Shown here: positions 13,027 through 25,001 of the stretch, one piece after another | Layout of the letters: each line of letters opens with the position of its first letter | Numbering within the stretch: the stretch's first letter is position 1 | Assembly: GCA_964510585.1 (NCBI GenBank) | Contig: CAZECW010000173.1 | Coordinates: forward strand, 1 to 32,000 | Direction of reading: 5' to 3' | DNA from: an uncultured archaeon | GTDB lineage: Archaea; Asgardarchaeota; Jordiarchaeia; Jordiarchaeales; Jordiarchaeaceae | DNA length: 32,000 nucleotides | Notes under the pieces: model-generated | What the model saw: only the letters and a program-made list of their open reading frames with translations | The model's database searches: none | What the model was told of the DNA's origin: nothing | Made by a program: the position numbers and the translations under genes

Positions 13027-13857
13027 TTATTCAGAAATGTGTAATCCATAGTACACTATCGATATACCTATTAGAACTACTAAAGGGCTAATTAGGTCGA
13101 AAATCTGTAAGCTTAGTGTGCTAGCGAGGCTGGTAGAGATTCCCCCAAAGAGTAGGGTTGATAAGAATCCTGCGAGGAAGAAGAGAATTCTTCTTTTCAA
13201 TATGCCCTCGGAGGCTCTGTAGACTTTTATTAGGTAATGGGATAATACACTTAAACCTACTGCTAGAGTAATTAGAAGTACTACCACGAGAAGGTCTGAG
13301 AAGGCTGTGTCTGGCGGCGCCACATCTAGAATCACTATGGATCCTGGAAGCCACACAACTATCATAGGCAAAGTAACGTACAGTATTATGGTTCTGGTGG
13401 CTTTAAGGTATCGAATCTGAATTTCTCCATAGTTAAGGCCCACGGAAACTATGAGCAGTAGGCCTAAAGATATCAAAATGAAGCTCAACATGAACTTTTG
13501 CCCAATTATTAAACCCGTAGCGTTTATGAAAAGTCCTAGGTTAAAGCTAACCGCAGCTGCAGCTATTCCCACATAGAAGGCTGCAAAAATTTTGTTAAGC
13601 CAGTAATCGGGATTCTTCTTATAAACTTTGTAACCTAGAATCAAGCTAATGATCGAAACAAACAAAGCTACAGCGAATTGTATGTAGTCCAGAGAAGTGC
13701 TCTCAAGGGGAAGTATCAATTTAATGCTCTCAGGTATTAACAAGTTCAGTATTGAGGGATAAAATACTTTAAGAAAAGGCAATACGGGGACTAGAGAGGG
13801 TATGAAATAAGCTATAATAAGCAATTCTAAAAAAGACGGCATTGTAGATTCCACCAC
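13027..13857 (-). CDS. Multi-pass (7-8 TM) membrane protein resembling stand-alone 7TM sensor domains, 276 aa
   Basis: Successive hydrophobic segments joined by basic loops (KVYKKNPDYWLNKIF; KVYRASEGILKRR). No soluble output domain. Confidence 0.8.
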   Translation of the reverse strand: MVESTMPSFLELLIIAYFIPSLVPVLPFLKVFYPSILNLLIPESIKLILPLESTSLDYIQFAVALFVSIISLILGYKVYKKNPDYWLNKIFAAFYVGIAAAAVSFNLGLFINATGLIIGQKFMLSFILISLGLLLIVSVGLNYGEIQIRYLKATRTIILYVTLPMIVVWLPGSIVILDVAPPDTAFSDLLVVVLLITLAVGLSVLSHYLIKVYRASEGILKRRILFFLAGFLSTLLFGGISTSLASTLSLQIFDLISPLVVLIGISIVYYGLHISE

Positions 13858-14176: not shown

Positions 14177-14857
14177 TTAGTGCTGGTGTATTTTGGGGTT
14201 TCTTCTACTTTTAGTTACAGATAATATTAGCTCGGTCTTGCATATTGCATCGAATGTTTTCGTGTGGGTACCATACCTCACAAATTTTTTGATGTCCTCA
14301 ACCTCGTCTAAATCGAGGATTACTCTGGGCGAACGGTATATTTTGGGTTCTATATTCCTTTTTCGAGTTTCTTCGATGTGTGCTTGGAAGCTATTTTTCC
14401 CAAATTTTGGTTCAATAACATTGGGGGGAGACCTATAGAGTATGTTTGTTCCGCCGTTTAGGGATGGAGAAAGAATTACTGTCCTTTCCGATTTTGCCAT
14501 TGATGTTATTTCGTCAATGTCTCGAGGTGTGATTAAGGGAAGGTCGGCGGGAATAACCAGAGAAGCTTCCGCATTCATTTCCAAACTGTATTCTGTGGCT
14601 TCGACTATTGCCTGATTTATTCCTCTCGGCTTTTCCTCCAGAAGTAGAATGGCGTTTTTTGGGATTATTTCTTCTATTAATTTATCTGAAGTTACCACTA
14701 TGAGTTTACTTACTTTTTTGGAGGAGGACACAGCAGAAATGACATCGGAAAGCATAGCTAGTACCAATTGCTTCCTTTGGGTATCAGGAATCTGGTCAGC
14801 TAATCTAGACTTGGATTCCTTCAGGCCTTTAAAAGGAATAACAACATGTACCCTCAA
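14177..14857 (-). CDS. cofC: 2-phospho-L-lactate/PEP guanylyltransferase
   Basis: Motifs VIPFK...SKSRL, AMLSDV, IPADLPLI, GGTN and DLD..ED. TTG start after GAGGGA. Located in the cof cluster. Confidence 0.92.
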   Translation of the reverse strand: MRVHVVIPFKGLKESKSRLADQIPDTQRKQLVLAMLSDVISAVSSSKKVSKLIVVTSDKLIEEIIPKNAILLLEEKPRGINQAIVEATEYSLEMNAEASLVIPADLPLITPRDIDEITSMAKSERTVILSPSLNGGTNILYRSPPNVIEPKFGKNSFQAHIEETRKRNIEPKIYRSPRVILDLDEVEDIKKFVRYGTHTKTFDAICKTELILSVTKSRRNPKIHQH

Positions 14858-14885: not shown

Positions 14886-15692
14886 TTAACCAAAATTCAA
14901 ATTAGAAATTTTCCACATCCTTCTTTGCAGGGCCTCCTCAACCTCCTGTGCAAGCCTTCCAACCAATCGAGGATCATTGAGAGTATATCTTGCAACTGAA
15001 ACCACCCTTGCCCCAGCCTCAATCATTCTTAAAGCGGTACTCGGATCAGTGACAGAATTGTTTCCAATTAGAAACACTTTACTTTTTTTTGAAATATTTC
15101 TAATGACTTCCAAGTCCGCCTCGGAGTAGCCCGGCTTCATGGCATCCACATGAAAGGCGTCTACTCCCAAGGAATCCAAGTTTTTTGCCAAGGCTACGTC
15201 GTCCACCACATTCGCGCGCCACTTCACTATTAAGGGCAAATCCAATACCTTTTTCAGACTTTTAATCCATTCTTTGAGTTTGTCAAGATTCAGGAGCAAT
15301 GCTTGACCTCCGCCCAATTGTGTTATCTCATGTTGCCTACAGTGAGCGTTAAGTTCAAAGGCATCTGCACCACTACTTTGAACAAGTTCTCCCGCTCTCA
15401 GCAGTCCTTCCAGTGTTGCCACCCTCACATTTACCGTTACTGGGGCGCCGCCCCTTTTTGCAGTTTTGACTTCTCTGAATAGAAAGTTTTCCAAGTCGCA
15501 GAGTTCCACATAAAACTCGCTTCTGCCCCTATTCTTAATTTCCAAGCCAGCCTTAATTGTTTCAGCATCAAAGTTTATTCCGCCCAGTATAACCATACCA
15601 GCGCCTGCTTTAGCAGCTTCAAAACAGAACTTACCATCACAAACGCCAGCCATAGCTGCCAAAACTACATGGCTCTTAACGCTTACCATCAT
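14886..15692 (-). CDS. Archaeal DUS-related FMN TIM-barrel protein (MJ0144/TIGR00736-like)
   Basis: VVLAAMAG, ELNAHCRQ (the DUS-type Cys is retained), G.GQALL, VKWR, HVDAM, IGNNSV and terminal SVAR. Confidence 0.85.
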   Translation of the reverse strand: MMVSVKSHVVLAAMAGVCDGKFCFEAAKAGAGMVILGGINFDAETIKAGLEIKNRGRSEFYVELCDLENFLFREVKTAKRGGAPVTVNVRVATLEGLLRAGELVQSSGADAFELNAHCRQHEITQLGGGQALLLNLDKLKEWIKSLKKVLDLPLIVKWRANVVDDVALAKNLDSLGVDAFHVDAMKPGYSEADLEVIRNISKKSKVFLIGNNSVTDPSTALRMIEAGARVVSVARYTLNDPRLVGRLAQEVEEALQRRMWKISNLNFG

Positions 15693-15699
15693 CCGGCCT

Positions 15700-16626
15700 C
15701 TAAATTTTCATTCTTTCCATAACCAGTTTAGCAAGATTTACTTTATCCTCCTTACTCTTCATTATAATATTTGTGCAAAAAACGCTGATACCCAAATCCT
15801 CTATCCTTTTAGTGAAAGCCTGATCACCTGTATCTATAAATATTTCATCTATGATGCCTTGATAAATGGTAGCTACCCCGAAGGGCGACACTTCAACGCC
15901 TATCCCCCTCAACAAGTTTCCTGCCGGTCCACTAACCGGCCCACCACCTATTATGGGACTAACACAAATTCTCTTGACCTTAACCTCCCCCAAGGCTTTC
16001 TTTATCTTGGATACGCCAAGGATTGGCCCTATGCTGGTAACGGGGTTGCTTGGACCGATAACTATTCCCTCAGACTTTTTTATTGATTCCAACACTCCCG
16101 GAGCCGGCTTAGCCTTTTCTATTCCCTCAAAAATAACATCTAAAACCTTATCTTCACCTTTTCTCTTAACCCAGAACTCTTGGAAGTGAAATTTTCCTTT
16201 ATCAGTTTTCACAAAAGTGGTTACTTTATCATTAGACATGGGCAGAATCTTTACCTTTATATCAAAGGCCTTACACAGCGAGTTGGTGACATCGGATAAA
16301 GTGTAACCCTTTTTTAGTAATATGGTTCTGTGTAGGTGTGTTGCTAAGTCTCGATCCCCAATGGAGAACCAGTCTGGGTAACCATATCTTTTCATCATAC
16401 TTAAAAAGTGAAAGGTGTCATCCTTTATTCCCCAAAACCTGTTTTCATCCAGAAGACCAGCTAGAAGGTAGATAGCTGTATCAATGTCGGGGCTAATGTA
16501 TAGTCCCTGCCATTCAAAGTCATCTGCAGTGTTGATTATGAGGGTTACTTCCTCAGGCTTCATGAAATTGAGAAAACCTTGGATAAGCTTTAGGCTGCCA
16601 GTTCCTCCGGACAGTACCGTTATCAT
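15700..16626 (-). CDS. cofD: 2-phospho-L-lactate transferase (LPPG:FO transferase)
   Basis: Motifs LSGGTG, SPDIDT..Y.LAG, WFSIGDRDLATH, HFQEFWV, GPSNPVTSIGPIL and SPIIG..PVSGPA. Confidence 0.95.
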   Translation of the reverse strand: MITVLSGGTGSLKLIQGFLNFMKPEEVTLIINTADDFEWQGLYISPDIDTAIYLLAGLLDENRFWGIKDDTFHFLSMMKRYGYPDWFSIGDRDLATHLHRTILLKKGYTLSDVTNSLCKAFDIKVKILPMSNDKVTTFVKTDKGKFHFQEFWVKRKGEDKVLDVIFEGIEKAKPAPGVLESIKKSEGIVIGPSNPVTSIGPILGVSKIKKALGEVKVKRICVSPIIGGGPVSGPAGNLLRGIGVEVSPFGVATIYQGIIDEIFIDTGDQAFTKRIEDLGISVFCTNIIMKSKEDKVNLAKLVMERMKI

Positions 16627-16642: not shown

Positions 16643-17389
16643 TTATCGAAACATGTCCTTCTCAGGCGCCCTTAATAAATCTTTAATGCTTCCTTCACCT
16701 TCAATATAGTCGAAACCCCTTATTATGACCACTGGGATTCCTTCATTAGCCTCACCCATAACGAGCTCCGCAGCCGACGCCAACTCATCCGCGATCCCCA
16801 CCAGTGTAGATTTCAAAGTATAACCAAAAAGATCAACATCGCCCCTCCTGTCCCAAACAGGTTTCATTCCAGATACGCCAATCGCAACATTGATGGCTCC
16901 CTCCCTGAATGGTCGACCATGTGTGTCCGAAATTATTACCGCTAGTTTAACTCCAGTTAATTTTTCCAATTCTTTCCTTATCTCCCTAGCTGATTTTTCC
17001 GGATCTCTAGGCAGTAGAGAAACAAAGTGTTCGCCCGGCATATTCGATTTGTCTACACCGGAATTGGCGCAAATAAAACCATGCTTGGTTTCTGTTATTA
17101 TGGCGTGCTCCATTCTAATAATTTGTTTCGCCTCTCTAAGTATAACCTCGACCTGACGGGGATCCTTTTCAAACCTTTCGGCAGTTCGTATAGCAAAATC
17201 GGATGGAACTACTGTATTAAGATCAACCACACTGCCCTCGGCTCTAGAAACTATGGTTTGGGCAATAACAAAAATATCCTTAGCTTTGATTTCTATGCCT
17301 TGTGCTTTAGCCGCTTCTACGATGAGTTTCGGTATATTATCGCCTTCCTTAACTATAGGTATTTCTTTTAGACCCATTATGTGAATCAT
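16643..17389 (-). CDS. cofE: Coenzyme F420-0:L-glutamate ligase (stand-alone, no FbiB-type nitroreductase domain), 248 aa
   Basis: Motifs IVSRAEG, ETKHGFICANSGVDKSN, LPRDP, ISDTHGRPFREG, ADELASAA and GEANEGIP. Confidence 0.95.
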   Translation of the reverse strand: MIHIMGLKEIPIVKEGDNIPKLIVEAAKAQGIEIKAKDIFVIAQTIVSRAEGSVVDLNTVVPSDFAIRTAERFEKDPRQVEVILREAKQIIRMEHAIITETKHGFICANSGVDKSNMPGEHFVSLLPRDPEKSAREIRKELEKLTGVKLAVIISDTHGRPFREGAINVAIGVSGMKPVWDRRGDVDLFGYTLKSTLVGIADELASAAELVMGEANEGIPVVIIRGFDYIEGEGSIKDLLRAPEKDMFR

Positions 17390-17645: not shown

Positions 17646-18080
17646 TTACTTTTTGTGCGGAAGTTTACCGTTCACAATTTTGGAAATGATGTTTTTCTGG
17701 GCACGACCTACTGCGCTTGTAAAATCGAATCCCTTTGTGTCTACGCTCAACTCATCAATAATATCTCCATAGGTGCACTCGTTAACAATTTCAATAATCA
17801 ATTCGGTTATGTCATATCTTCTTGATTTGTATCTTACAATAATGGTCTGATTCTCCCAATCCACTTCAGCGCCGTATTCTTGTCTCTGTAAGTTAATCGC
17901 CTCCGCTATGGTAATCCCGGGATTCATCCTCATCACTTCTTGAGGTGAAGGAACGGTTATTCCTTCCCTAGCTAGAAGCGTGTGTTGAACAAACATTGCA
18001 AGAAGCCAACAACGGTTAAATCTCCCCGCCCACACTCGCGGTATTCTGTCTTCATCGTTTTCAGACAAACAACTCACCAT
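17646..18080 (-). CDS. Hypothetical soluble protein, 144 aa
   Basis: Clean ORF with globular-protein composition, preceded by an AT-rich promoter-like region. No motif recognised. Confidence 0.75.
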   Translation of the reverse strand: MVSCLSENDEDRIPRVWAGRFNRCWLLAMFVQHTLLAREGITVPSPQEVMRMNPGITIAEAINLQRQEYGAEVDWENQTIIVRYKSRRYDITELIIEIVNECTYGDIIDELSVDTKGFDFTSAVGRAQKNIISKIVNGKLPHKK

Positions 18081-21147: not shown

Positions 21148-22032
21148 TTAGATTAGAGCCCTTCTAGCAAGGATAACCGAAATCAGCATTGAAACTAATA
21201 AGAACAGTAATAAGACAGAGGCGTCGAATAATAATGAGGGTAAAATATCCATGGTTGCAAATCCCCCTCCCAATTTTCCCAATTGTCCGCCCAGCATAAG
21301 TTTTCTTATCCCATCTACAGCGTAGGCTAGAGGGTTAAAGCGGGCAATAGCTTGGAGCCATTGGGGCATTGCTTCAACAGGGATTATGGTTCCACTTACA
21401 AAAAATATGGGCATTAGGAAGAGGTTTATTAGTTCGAAGAACTCGTGTCCCGCGATTTTTAGTCCAACGGCTGTTGAGATTGCCGAGAAACCCATGGTTA
21501 GCAGAATCAGGAAGGGGATGGTGAGTATAACATAGAATCCAGTGTTAATTTTCACGCCTATCAAGGGCACGAGGGCGAGCATAATTATGCCCTGTATTAG
21601 ACTTCTCAGGACAGTTGATGTGAGTTTTCCCAGTATGATGGATGTGCGGGGAATGGGGGATACTAGCAGCTTAGTTAAGAAACCCATACGTTTATCCCAA
21701 AATATTGAAGTGCCAGAAAATGCCGCCATAAACATTACCGAAGCCGCCACCACACCCGATGCATAGAAATCAATATAATTAACACTAAATATGTTCAGCA
21801 AAACATACCTTACAGGCGATGATGGAAGAAATAATAAAAGTGAAGAAAGAATACTTGCGCCTTGCATATTCCACGAAAAATTATAGTTATAGAGGGGCAT
21901 ACCTCCATTAAAGGCGAATCCGAAGAAGATTAGCCAGGCCAGGGGAGTGATTAGTGATGTGGCAAACTGGATTCTCCGCCGAAAATAATGCTTCATATCC
22001 CTTTGAGCTATTTGCCAAGCCTCAGCCAACAT
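21148..22032 (-). CDS. ABC-2 type (DrrB-like) exporter permease, paralog 3
   Basis: WDKRMGFLTKLLVSPIPR.SI.LGK, PIFFVSG..P and NPL.YAVD..R, with six or more TM segments. Confidence 0.9.
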   Translation of the reverse strand: MLAEAWQIAQRDMKHYFRRRIQFATSLITPLAWLIFFGFAFNGGMPLYNYNFSWNMQGASILSSLLLFLPSSPVRYVLLNIFSVNYIDFYASGVVAASVMFMAAFSGTSIFWDKRMGFLTKLLVSPIPRTSIILGKLTSTVLRSLIQGIIMLALVPLIGVKINTGFYVILTIPFLILLTMGFSAISTAVGLKIAGHEFFELINLFLMPIFFVSGTIIPVEAMPQWLQAIARFNPLAYAVDGIRKLMLGGQLGKLGGGFATMDILPSLLFDASVLLLFLLVSMLISVILARRALI

Positions 22033-22161
22033 GTAGCACATTACCTCTGAGAAACGGTGCTAAACCCGGTTTATAAGCTCTGCCATCAAAAAGTTTCAAG
22101 AAAAACATCAACTCTACCATAAACACTAAAATTCATACGAAGAAGAATTAGAGAAGAGTGT

Positions 22162-23079
22162 TTAAAGGGTATACTTTCTGAATAGTAGAGCCCCCGTAAC
22201 CACCATAACTACAAATATCACCATCAGCACCACAAAATCTAATAGTAAGGACCCCCCGATTCCCAAAACAAATAAATTCCAATTGATTGGCATATATAGA
22301 CCACCAAAAAGGGCCAGCCTAGTGGCGTCAACAGCATAGGTTAACGGGTTTCCCTGAGCAATAAACTGCAACCAATTGGGCATAGAGGCTATGGGTACAA
22401 CCGCCGAACTGGCAAAGAATAGGGGAAGTAGAATCATTTGAAATACGCCGAAGAAGACCTCGTGATCAGCCAACTTGATTCCCAAAGATACCGAGAGACC
22501 GGCGAGACCCGCAGCGAAAACTATCATGAAGGGAATGCTTATGGCAACGCCTAATATGCCAGTATAAATTTTGGCTCCCAATAGTACGGCCAGCACAACA
22601 ACCACTAAAGCTTGTATTAGGCTTCTAATAGTGGAAGACATCATTTTTCCCAGCATAATGGAAGATCTGGGAATTGGAGCCACCAACAATTTGGTGATAT
22701 ATCCAAACCGCTTATCCCAGATAATGCTTATTCCAGACATAAAGGCAGTAACCATGACAGTGGCGGCAATAATTCCAGTCGCCAAAAAATCGAGATATTG
22801 AATACCATAACTGGTTAATAGGATAGATTTTAGAGGTTCACCAATGGGAAGAAAATAAACAAAAAATTGAATAATGTTTAGTAGTCCCCGACCACCAAAA
22901 ATTGCACCACTCAAACCCGGAATCCCTGAACTTATCGCATAGCCAAAGAACCCCAGCCAAACCGCAGGCTGTATGAACGAAGTTAACACCTGCACTTTTC
23001 TTCGCATAAAATGTCTTAGCTCCCTTTCCGTTACATACCATGCCTCTTTAAACAAAAGCTTTTCCACCACCAAGCCCAT
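22162..23079 (-). CDS. ABC-2 type (DrrB-like) exporter permease, paralog 2
   Basis: WDKRFGYITKLLVAPIPRSSIMLGK, PLFFASSA and NPLTYAVD. Confidence 0.9.
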   Translation of the reverse strand: MGLVVEKLLFKEAWYVTERELRHFMRRKVQVLTSFIQPAVWLGFFGYAISSGIPGLSGAIFGGRGLLNIIQFFVYFLPIGEPLKSILLTSYGIQYLDFLATGIIAATVMVTAFMSGISIIWDKRFGYITKLLVAPIPRSSIMLGKMMSSTIRSLIQALVVVVLAVLLGAKIYTGILGVAISIPFMIVFAAGLAGLSVSLGIKLADHEVFFGVFQMILLPLFFASSAVVPIASMPNWLQFIAQGNPLTYAVDATRLALFGGLYMPINWNLFVLGIGGSLLLDFVVLMVIFVVMVVTGALLFRKYTL

Positions 23080-23110
23080 TCTAATTAAAAAGTTAACTGT
23101 TCAAAATTTT

Positions 23111-24004
23111 TCATTTGAGCGACCTTCTAAAAATGGTTACTCCTATCGAAACCATAATCACTATAAACAAGGTCAACACAACCGCATCCACCAGAAGACT
23201 CCCTCCAATCCCGATTAGAGCATAACCACCCCCCAATGGTCCAAAGGTCCCCCCCAGCATCGCACATCTTATTGCATCCACAGCGTATGTCAAAGGATTA
23301 AAATAAGCCACAACCTGCAACCAACCCGGCATAAGTTGAACAGGAACAAGAGCCCCAGAAGCAAAAAACAGAGGCAGAAGTATGAGATTAATAACTCCAA
23401 AGAATTCCTCATGTTCCGCCATCTTAATCCCAATAGCCGTAGATAACCCCGAGAACCCCAAGGTAAACAGAATCATGTAGGGCACAGCTATCACAACCCC
23501 CCATAGACCCGTATTCATTTTCGCACCCAAAACTATCGCCAAACCCATAACTATCAACCCCTGTATCATCGCTCTAACCGTTGCCGAAATCATTTTACCA
23601 AACATTATCGAACTCCTAGGAATCGGACTAACCAACAACTTATTAAGATAGCCAAACCTCTTATCAAACACTATAGAAACACCCGCAAACATCCCAGTAA
23701 ACATAACGGTCATAGCCACAATACCCGGAGAGAGGAAAGAGAGATAACTCGTGGTAGTCAAATTCAAAAGAAAGTAACTCTGCCAAAGTTCAAGATTCAG
23801 AGACAAAACAAAAAAAGTAAGCAAAGTGGGAATACCCTCAATCCCAAGACTACTCAAATTAAACCCAGGCAAACCCCCACTAAGCGCATAACCAAACAAC
23901 GCCAACCAAATCACAGGAGTAGCCAGAGAAGTAACAATCTGAATCCTCCGCCTATAAAAATGTTTAATCTCCCTCAAAGCCACATACCAAGACTCACTCA
24001 ACAT
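23111..24004 (-). CDS. ABC-2 type (DrrB-like) exporter permease, paralog 1
   Basis: FDKRFGYLNKLLVSPIPRSSIMFGK, PLFFASGA and NPLTYAVD. Confidence 0.9.
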   Translation of the reverse strand: MLSESWYVALREIKHFYRRRIQIVTSLATPVIWLALFGYALSGGLPGFNLSSLGIEGIPTLLTFFVLSLNLELWQSYFLLNLTTTSYLSFLSPGIVAMTVMFTGMFAGVSIVFDKRFGYLNKLLVSPIPRSSIMFGKMISATVRAMIQGLIVMGLAIVLGAKMNTGLWGVVIAVPYMILFTLGFSGLSTAIGIKMAEHEEFFGVINLILLPLFFASGALVPVQLMPGWLQVVAYFNPLTYAVDAIRCAMLGGTFGPLGGGYALIGIGGSLLVDAVVLTLFIVIMVSIGVTIFRRSLK

Positions 24005-24008
24005 ACTA

Positions 24009-25001
24009 CTAACGCCTTCTCCTCTTCATTAACATCATTCTCTTAAATAGCTCAATCCTGTCCGCCTTCTCCTCCCTAAGACTCCTACCCGTAAACTTAA
24101 TGAAAACATCGTCAAGAGTGGGACGACTCAGAGAAATATTATCTATACTCACACCAATCCTGCTCGCCTCCTGAAACAACTTGGGTATCGCAGTCTCACC
24201 CCTATCAACCGTCAACCGAATACCATCCTCCTGCGGCAAAACCTCAGTAACAAAATCCAAGGTTTTGATGTGATTCAGAAACCGCTCCCTATCATTAGCG
24301 TGCACCGTAACCACATCCCCACCCAGCATCCCCTTAAGCTCCTCCGGAGAACCAATATTCACAATCTTCCCATAATCAATAATCGCAATACGATCACACA
24401 ACTTATCAGCCTCATCCATATAATGAGTGGTCATAAAAATCGTAATACCCTCCTCGTTCAGCTTCCTAACATACTCCCAAATACTAGCCCGACTCGCGGG
24501 GTCTAATCCTAAGGTGGGTTCATCAAGGAATAGTATGTCTGGGTGGTGCATTAGTCCCTCGGCGATTTCTAGTCTGCGGCGCATTCCGCCGGAGAATTTT
24601 TTGACTAGAGTGTTTTGCCATTCAGTTAGTTCTACGATTTGAAGGAGTTCGGGTATCCTTTGTTGTATGAGGTTTTTGGGCATGTGGTAGAGTTTGCCGT
24701 GTAGTTCCATGTTTTCTCTTGCTGTGAGTTCGTCGTCTACGCTTATATCTTGGGGTACTAGCCCTATTTTTTTTCTTACTTCGTCTGGTTGTTTTTTTAC
24801 GTCTATTCCTGCTATTTTGGCTTCTCCTTCGGTTATTTGTGTTAGGGTGCATAGCATGTGCACCGTGGTTGTTTTTCCGGCTCCGTTTGGTCCTAGGAAA
24901 CCGAATATTTCTCCTTCCTGTACTTGGAAGCTTATGTGGTCTACTGCGGTGAATTTTCCGCCGTAGATTTTTGTTAGGTTGTTTGTTTCGACTATGGCCA
25001 T
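24009..25001 (-). CDS. ABC exporter ATP-binding subunit, DrrA family, 330 aa
   Basis: Walker A GPNGAGKT, Q-loop VPQ, signature FSGGMRRR, Walker B LFLDEPT, H-loop TTHYMDEA and C-terminal PTLDDVF. Confidence 0.95.
   Translation of the reverse strand: MAIVETNNLTKIYGGKFTAVDHISFQVQEGEIFGFLGPNGAGKTTTVHMLCTLTQITEGEAKIAGIDVKKQPDEVRKKIGLVPQDISVDDELTARENMELHGKLYHMPKNLIQQRIPELLQIVELTEWQNTLVKKFSGGMRRRLEIAEGLMHHPDILFLDEPTLGLDPASRASIWEYVRKLNEEGITIFMTTHYMDEADKLCDRIAIIDYGKIVNIGSPEELKGMLGGDVVTVHANDRERFLNHIKTLDFVTEVLPQEDGIRLTVDRGETAIPKLFQEASRIGVSIDNISLSRPTLDDVFIKFTGRSLREEKADRIELFKRMMLMKRRRR

Follow-up and report, generated by a model that had tools for sequence, protein, structure and literature searches.

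The route by which archaea acquire the saturated lactyl linker of the cofactor F420 has been an open question for more than 20 years, and it is raised again by an operon in the window analysed here, a 32,000-nucleotide stretch of DNA from an Asgard archaeon, in which a gene resembling tRNA-dihydrouridine synthases (Dus) lies among genes for F420 synthesis. Bashiri et al. (2019) reported that phosphoenolpyruvate (PEP) gives dehydro-F420-0, which is reduced by FbiB's C-terminal domain (FbiB-C); their study left the archaea unexplained, postulated a separate reductase, 'CofX', sought only nitroreductase (NTR) folds near cofE, and found that PEP is accepted by Mj-CofC (PMC6450877). Experiments in Mycobacterium and Thermomicrobium have demonstrated the activity of FbiB-C and FbiE (PMC6450877, PMC8498797). 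In vitro, the archaeal CofC/CofD pairs studied by Hasan et al. (2022) show either a preference or a high specificity for 2-phospho-L-lactate (2-PL), and the CofC proteins of Methanocaldococcus and Methanosarcina are among the 2-PL-preferring archaeal enzymes tested (PMC8764529). A lactate kinase, CofB, was proposed but never found (PMC6450877, PMC8498797), and a 2021 review described the formation of 2-phospholactate in methanogens as a long-standing question (PMC8498797). In our analysis, no sequence criterion told CofC or CofD proteins that use PEP apart from those that use 2-PL, and our literature search returned no paper connecting the MJ0144 family, to which the gene in question belongs, with F420.

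The operon is encoded on the minus strand in the order cofE-cofD-X-cofC, where X denotes this gene. The cofE gene (positions 16643-17389) encodes an F420-0:gamma-glutamyl ligase of 248 aa (TIGR01916, 300.6 bits), cofD (15700-16626) a 2-phospho-L-lactate (or enolpyruvyl) transferase of 308 aa (TIGR01819, 354.4 bits, above the cut-off), X (14886-15692) a 268-aa member of the MJ0144 family ('archaeal Dus') of FMN TIM-barrel proteins (TIGR00736, 198 bits), and cofC (14177-14857, with a TTG start) a guanylyltransferase for 2-PL or PEP of 226 aa (TIGR03552, 174.1 bits). According to the list of open reading frames, the intergenic gaps are 16, 7, and 28 nt. Reading the DNA directly, we found the stop codon of cofD (TAG) followed by AGGCCGG and the ATG start of X, and the stop codon of X (TAA) followed by 28 nt including GAGGG and the TTG start of cofC, so the order and spacing given in the original prediction stand. 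Its statement that CofE carries no C-terminal nitroreductase domain was also borne out by a Pfam domain search, which detected F420_ligase (residues 10-225) as the sole domain and no nitroreductase domain in the CofE of the window. The source genome contains cofG, cofH, cofC, cofD, and cofE, with cofG and cofH side by side on another contig, and contains no FbiB-type nitroreductase (best TIGR03553 match, 45 bits), which agrees with the gap-filling role that had been proposed for X. A search of the same genome recovered no canonical Dus. The nearest loci, from MAGs labelled Candidatus Jordarchaeia or Freyarchaeota, share 95-97% identity and an identical gene order with the window.

What kind of protein X is can be read from its family, its predicted fold, and its conserved residues. 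The match to TIGR00736 runs from position 1 to position 226 of the 231-position model, its full length in effect (198 bits, E 1.6e-58), and the X protein of Methanobacterium oryzae reaches 251 bits. Because 198 bits lies below the curated cut-off of 218.7 bits, which is passed by 5 of the 40 Asgard X homologues described below, the Asgard proteins appear to form a diverged branch of the MJ0144 family. X also matches Pfam Dus (PF01207, 67.1 bits; X residues 83-262, profile positions 54-241 of 311). An AlphaFold model based on a 34-row alignment (mean pLDDT 93.6) predicts an eight-stranded beta/alpha barrel with one terminal helix (residues 243-266). Foldseek searches with this model returned Dus enzymes first (3b0v, 6ei9), then ene-reductases of the OYE type, DHOD B, and DPD, with TM-scores of 0.65-0.73 and identities of 13-21%, and a profile search against PDB sequences ranked DusB (E 1.8e-20) ahead of DHOD B (4e-15). 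Each of these fold neighbours uses FMN to reduce a C=C bond adjoining a carbonyl or carboxyl group. On the strength of these similarities, we infer that X binds FMN.

In the profile alignment, Cys118 of X coincides with the catalytic cysteine of DusB, and K157-x-R159 with the KxR motif of Dus. Cys118, the putative general acid, lies within the motif ELNAHCRQHE (residues 113-122; positions 15327-15356, minus strand), so that the description of X as a Dus-related TIM barrel retaining the cysteine of ELNAHCRQ is confirmed by the family matches, the model, and these residues. Among 103 distinct X homologues, drawn from Asgard, methanogen, and haloarchaeal-type loci, the residues G16, G37, E59, N88, R90, E113, H117, C118, Q120, E122, G129, K157, R159, H181, D183, N211, N212, G227, S232, and R235 are invariant, and R55 and R57 are kept in 101 of the 103. 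The 'archaeal Dus' subfamily was set up by Kasprzak et al. (2012) by clustering alone; in its members H takes the place of G in the Dus motif NxGCP, K or R that of P, and D that of R in HxR (PMC3674756). X conforms to these signatures, as N115-A-H-C-R119 and H181-V-D183 correspond to N-x-H-C-[KR] and H-x-D, respectively; where Dus enzymes have NxGCP and HxR, X thus reads NAHCR and HVD. Q57608 of Methanocaldococcus jannaschii served as the 'archaeal Dus' representative in a later paper, and our literature search uncovered no paper reporting activity in any subfamily member. Furthermore, the C-terminal helical domain with which Dus enzymes bind tRNA is absent from X: the Pfam match ends at profile position 241 of 311, a single helix follows the barrel in the model, and the matched Dus structures comprise 305-317 residues compared with the 268 of X. 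This barrel-only build falls within the architecture of the subfamily (~230-270 aa), in which a Cys-rich methanogenesis marker 9 (mm9) domain is optional. A complex prediction for CofD and X scored 0.00, below the mark, and carries no weight either way.

The position of X next to cofD is not peculiar to the window. We searched 201 Asgard genomes with TIGR00736 (X, E<=1e-33), TIGR01819 (cofD), and TIGR03553 (nitroreductase) and found cofD in 133 and an X homologue in 40, the latter spread over 8 GTDB families; a 41st TIGR00736 match, at 43 bits, is a different protein. All 40 X-bearing genomes contain cofD, and X is missing from all 68 genomes that lack cofD. In every assessable case (39/39; the 40th locus is cut by a contig end), X is immediately downstream of cofD and on its strand, an arrangement that for this reason cannot be attributed to chance. 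The usual order in 31 Asgard loci and the window is cofD-X-cofC, with gaps of -35 to +59 nt.

In other Asgard genomes, the place beside cofD is taken by a different gene. Matches to TIGR03553 are bimodal across the 201 genomes, and we counted as FbiB-C-like those scoring at least 75 bits, a strong class of 75-175 bits found in ~71 genomes. Nearly all of these nitroreductases are encoded within 150 nt upstream of cofD (n = 65), with two at 1.4 kb and four not assessable. Some are stand-alone proteins of ~205-230 aa resembling FbiE, and others form part of a ~475-aa frame fused to CofE as in FbiB, a fusion already reported for Lokiarchaeum (PMC6450877). X was found in none of the ~71 genomes with a strong nitroreductase, and none of the 40 X-bearing genomes contained a strong nitroreductase, their best matches (66 and 56 bits) being unlinked to cofD. 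The cofD locus thus holds one or the other of the two genes, a classic case of non-orthologous displacement, and since the alternation follows family boundaries, it comprises few independent switches. At the thresholds used, both X and a linked nitroreductase are missing from 25 of the 133 cofD-bearing Asgard genomes, and in those examined cofD and cofC are directly adjacent. When we looked beside cofD in these genomes for a third reductase, the genes encountered encode Rpb5, an M24 peptidase, and a radical SAM protein. One family among them (f14) has a conserved ORF of ~305 aa near cofD that matches no known family.

Outside the Asgard archaea, the association recurs in several forms. Twenty-one named loci of Methanobacterium have the order cofE-cofD-arfA-X; the intervening gene of M. 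oryzae was identified as arfA, encoding GTP cyclohydrolase IIa (371.7 bits), and in this species a stand-alone mm9 protein is encoded two genes beyond X. In a sample of 151 euryarchaeal genomes, cofD is present in 148 and a match to the X family in 100, and X lies within 300 nt downstream of cofD in 35 of these 100. Nineteen of the 35 are X-mm9 fusions of ~370-400 aa that resemble a named Methanomicrobia locus (L079). The other 16 form a lower-scoring tier, of which the four loci that were fetched (L098-L101) match the X profile at 166-194 bits and lie amid haloarchaeal-type genes. In the Methanosarcinales, X is likewise fused to the Cys-rich mm9 domain and is not beside cofD, the two genes being 27 kb apart in Methanosarcina sp. 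Mfa9. Loci of the Methanosarcinales, Methanocellales, Methanomicrobia type, and haloarchaeal type have X followed by genes for a CitG-like protein (PF01874) and a DUF447 protein, and often by dmrX. Both Methanocaldococcus and Methanosarcina carry X homologues, and MJ0144 of M. jannaschii is the founding member of the family. For methanogens, the eight-Cys mm9 domain suggests an iron-sulfur electron route; in the source genome, the search for an mm9 partner yielded just a partial one-repeat motif in an unlinked ORF of 231 aa. No cofD-linked FbiB-type nitroreductase was found in the euryarchaeal sample, so this second phylum offers no replication of the exclusion pattern. Of the 148 euryarchaeal genomes with cofD, 48 lack both X and a linked nitroreductase at the thresholds used, and X is thus not universal among cofD-bearing genomes in either sample.

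Taken together, these data bear out all the genomic predictions made for X before the survey. The expected linkage of MJ0144/TIGR00736 homologues to cof genes holds in all assessable Asgard genomes across the 8 GTDB families and extends to Methanobacterium, Methanomicrobia-type, and haloarchaeal-type genomes. That X would be a reductase non-homologous to the nitroreductase agrees with the mutual exclusion of the two genes in the 201 Asgard genomes, where each adjoins cofD, and a role in F420 synthesis instead of tRNA modification is supported by the cofD linkage, the exclusion, the missing tRNA-binding domain, and the change of two Dus signature residues. Because X is adjacent to cofD and, among the Asgard genomes, occurs only in those without a known side-chain reductase, it is a candidate for the role of FbiB-C/FbiE. 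Comparative genomics gives strong support to X as a putative enzyme that performs a known function without homology to the known reductase, and we consider it likely that X reduces the enolpyruvyl C=C bond of the side chain at some stage, be it in PEP, in enolpyruvyl-diphospho-guanosine (EPPG), or in dehydro-F420-0.

Our leading reading, to which we tentatively assign a probability of roughly 0.4, is that X may be the archaeal dehydro-F420-0 reductase, that is, the postulated 'CofX'. In this pathway, CofC would activate PEP to EPPG, CofD would move the enolpyruvyl phosphate onto FO to give dehydro-F420-0, and X would saturate the CH2=C of the enolpyruvyl group, turning it into the CH3-CH of a lactyl group and yielding F420-0 for glutamylation by the single-domain CofE. 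By analogy with Dus and DHOD, a hydride could pass from reduced FMN to the terminal methylene carbon while the invariant Cys118 protonates C2. The reaction of X, its substrate, its electron donor, and the transfer of hydride and of a proton from Cys118 are what we infer from the comparisons described here. The displacement pattern mildly favours reduction after CofD, and hence dehydro-F420-0 as the substrate. In the Methanosarcinales, X is linked to the CitG-like, DUF447, and DmrX genes rather than to cofD, which counts against the leading reading.

The data support X as filling the reductase niche of the F420 side-chain pathway, and two reactions fit the genomic evidence equally well. Instead of acting on dehydro-F420-0, X might be a phosphoenolpyruvate reductase that converts PEP to 2-PL and feeds it to CofC and CofD, making it the true source of 2-PL in place of 'CofB'; we regard this as quite possible, though not probable. 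The linkage to cofD and the exclusion of the nitroreductase would be expected just the same, and reduction before CofC is favoured because archaeal CofC/CofD prefer 2-PL in vitro (PMC8764529). Lineages with such a preference bear X, as X-mm9 fusions in Methanosarcina and as MJ0144 in M. jannaschii, and no lactate kinase has been identified (PMC6450877, PMC8498797). The conserved basic residues R55, R57, R90, H117, and R235, which are specific to the family, would suit a small tri-anionic substrate. 2-PL itself was reportedly identified by chemical means in methanogen cells by Graupner and White in 2001, but White's group is also said to have observed GTP-dependent phosphorylation of lactate in extracts, and with such an activity no PEP reductase would be needed; we know of no PEP reductase in any organism. 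Furthermore, the exchange of nitroreductase and X among related lineages is most simply explained if both catalyse one and the same step, and free 2-PL has been argued to inhibit glycolytic enzymes (PMC6450877). A different role in F420 or flavin metabolism, such as reduction of EPPG within a CofC-CofD complex or a function in the metabolism of deazaflavin or riboflavin precursors, is unlikely, and the part of it that falls to EPPG has only a slim chance. Adjacency to cofD proves a link to the pathway and no particular step, and arfA lies between cofD and X in Methanobacterium; however, the current scheme of FO and F420 tail synthesis leaves no further reduction unaccounted for, the exclusion with a dehydro-F420-0 reductase points to enolpyruvyl reduction, and the Asgard X genes lie between cofD and cofC, not with cofG and cofH, which are on another contig here.

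The two remaining explanations would remove X from F420 synthesis altogether. The CitG-like, DUF447, and DmrX families are required for the synthesis of tetrahydromethanopterin (H4MPT) in methylotrophs, and their genes following X in the euryarchaeal loci named above, often with dmrX included, could mean that X acts in the biosynthesis of H4MPT or another pterin cofactor and is a mere neighbour of cofD. Using Mch as the H4MPT marker and mapping it across the Asgard sample by GTDB family, we found that X does not track it: X is present in 15/21 and 8/10 genomes of families f5 and f21, which have no Mch (0/21 and 0/10), and absent from families f7 (0/43) and f9 (0/41), in which Mch occurs in 40/43 and 40/41 genomes. 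As X follows cofD (in all 40 X-bearing genomes) and not Mch, we rejected this explanation for the Asgard archaea and consider it very improbable overall. That X is an archaeal tRNA dihydrouridine synthase which came to lie in the cof operon by chance seems least credible of all and extremely unlikely, even though the top sequence and fold matches are Dus enzymes, close homologues are labelled 'tRNA-dihydrouridine synthase' in the databases, and the catalytic cysteine and the KxR motif are retained. Such a function is at odds with the absence of the helical tRNA-binding domain, with the changes from NxGCP to NAHCR and from HxR to HVD, with a cofD synteny conserved across phyla, and with the absence of X from 68/68 Asgard genomes without cofD; moreover, the subfamily was defined by clustering only and has no reported activity behind it (PMC3674756).

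One gene of ~250 aa is thus tied to cofD in four archaeal lineages, and it appears to replace the known reductase. If X is the dehydro-F420-0 reductase, the archaeal F420 pathway would be complete and X would provide a compact part for heterologous F420 production. The label 'tRNA-dihydrouridine synthase' would have to be corrected on hundreds of archaeal genes, the archaeal branch would leave the Dus family tree, and F420-making uncultured archaea could be predicted more reliably. If X is instead a PEP reductase, its reaction would be new to biochemistry and would represent the long-sought lactyl source in methanogens, haloarchaea, and Asgard archaea. In that case, the whole 'archaeal Dus' branch would not be a tRNA enzyme, these archaea would be without a Dus of that subfamily, and archaeal evidence would no longer back the inference that LUCA had a Dus.

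Among known systems, the closest by sequence is the MJ0144 family itself, with which X shares the full-length match, the subfamily signatures, and the barrel-only architecture. The Asgard members are 41-47% identical to the methanogen members aligned and differ from them in lacking the Cys-rich mm9 domain, which is fused to X in the Methanosarcinales and encoded nearby in Methanobacterium. With the tRNA-modifying Dus enzymes (DusA/B/C, Dus1-4; PF01207, COG0042), X has in common the FMN TIM barrel and the aligned cysteine and K-x-R, with TM-scores of 0.66-0.71 to E. coli DusB (6ei9) and T. thermophilus Dus (3b0v), and its proposed chemistry would belong to the same class, in which a flavin hydride and a cysteine proton are added to a C=C bond conjugated with a carbonyl or carboxyl group. 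In contrast to these enzymes, with which its identity is 17-21%, X has no helical tRNA-binding domain, has other residues for the Gly and Pro within NxGCP as well as for the Arg within HxR, and is encoded in a context of cofactor synthesis, not of RNA modification.

For the reaction itself, the nearest precedent is MurB (UDP-N-acetylenolpyruvoylglucosamine reductase), which reduces the C=C bond of an enolpyruvyl ether to a lactyl group with reduced flavin and is, to our knowledge, the only well-studied enzyme to do so. MurB is an FAD enzyme with a fold unrelated to that of X and with serine as the proton donor, and we saw no sequence or structural relation between the two; since MurB carries out a comparable reduction, the chemistry proposed for X appears feasible. 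By genomic niche, the counterpart of X is FbiB-C/FbiE (TIGR03553), which is likewise encoded directly beside cofD, is likewise an F420-operon gene where CofE has no reductase of its own, and is an FMN-type enzyme for the very task proposed for X, the saturation of the enolpyruvyl group of PEP-derived F420. The activity of FbiB-C/FbiE rests on experiment, whereas X is a candidate that may act earlier, on PEP. The nitroreductase is encoded upstream of cofD or fused to CofE, X downstream of cofD, and the alpha+beta dimer of the nitroreductases stands against the TIM barrel of X, so that X is no member of this family and would be its analogue.

On either side of the cof operon in the window lies a minus-strand ORF that matched no Pfam or NCBIfam family: one of 144 aa upstream of cofE (17646-18080) and one of 276 aa, encoding a multi-pass membrane protein, downstream of cofC (13027-13857). 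The window also contains one ABC ATPase gene followed by three tandem ABC-2 membrane-protein paralogues of 297, 305, and 297 aa (21148-25001, minus strand). On contig C60 of the source Asgard genome, a second Dus/DHOD-like TIM-barrel match (38360-38989, plus strand; 49 bits to PF01207) contains an in-frame TGA; it may be a pseudogene, encode a selenoprotein, or comprise two genes.

Asgard family f14 has cofD but lacks both X, the MJ0144-family TIM-barrel gene, and the FbiB-type nitroreductase. Directly upstream of cofD, this family encodes a conserved ORF of ~305 aa (L087:5949-6866 and L096:5964-6899, minus strand; L088:4025-4945 and L097:4049-4984, plus strand), whose copies share 31-52% pairwise identity and matched no Pfam or NCBIfam family. 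It could be a third solution to the same step as X and the nitroreductase, or it could be unrelated. Three family f16 genomes (G041, G058, and G020) each encode three or four additional CofD-like paralogues, scoring 180-200 bits, under the family cut-off, along with a genuine cofD adjoining X; the G041 contig matches the Candidatus Borrarchaeum weybense locus L010.

Methanosarcinales carry the methanogenesis-marker-9 domain (L038:6751-7101; L034:8722-9201) as a fusion with X, whereas in Methanobacterium it stands alone close to X. It repeats the motif C-x(7-12)-CC-x5-C twice, with eight cysteines in total, and resembles a metal or iron-sulfur module. The source Asgard genome encodes only a single-repeat look-alike, within an unlinked 231-aa ORF (L082:869-1564, contig C4) that finishes with a zinc-ribbon-like CxxC...CxxC. 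A CitG-like gene (PF01874) and a DUF447 gene come after X or its marker-9 fusion in genomes of Methanosarcinales and Methanocellales and in those of Methanomicrobia type and haloarchaeal type, often with dmrX next (L038:7091-8778; L079:2256-3650; L098:3545-4961), the haloarchaeal-type loci having the gene order cofD-X-CitG-DUF447.
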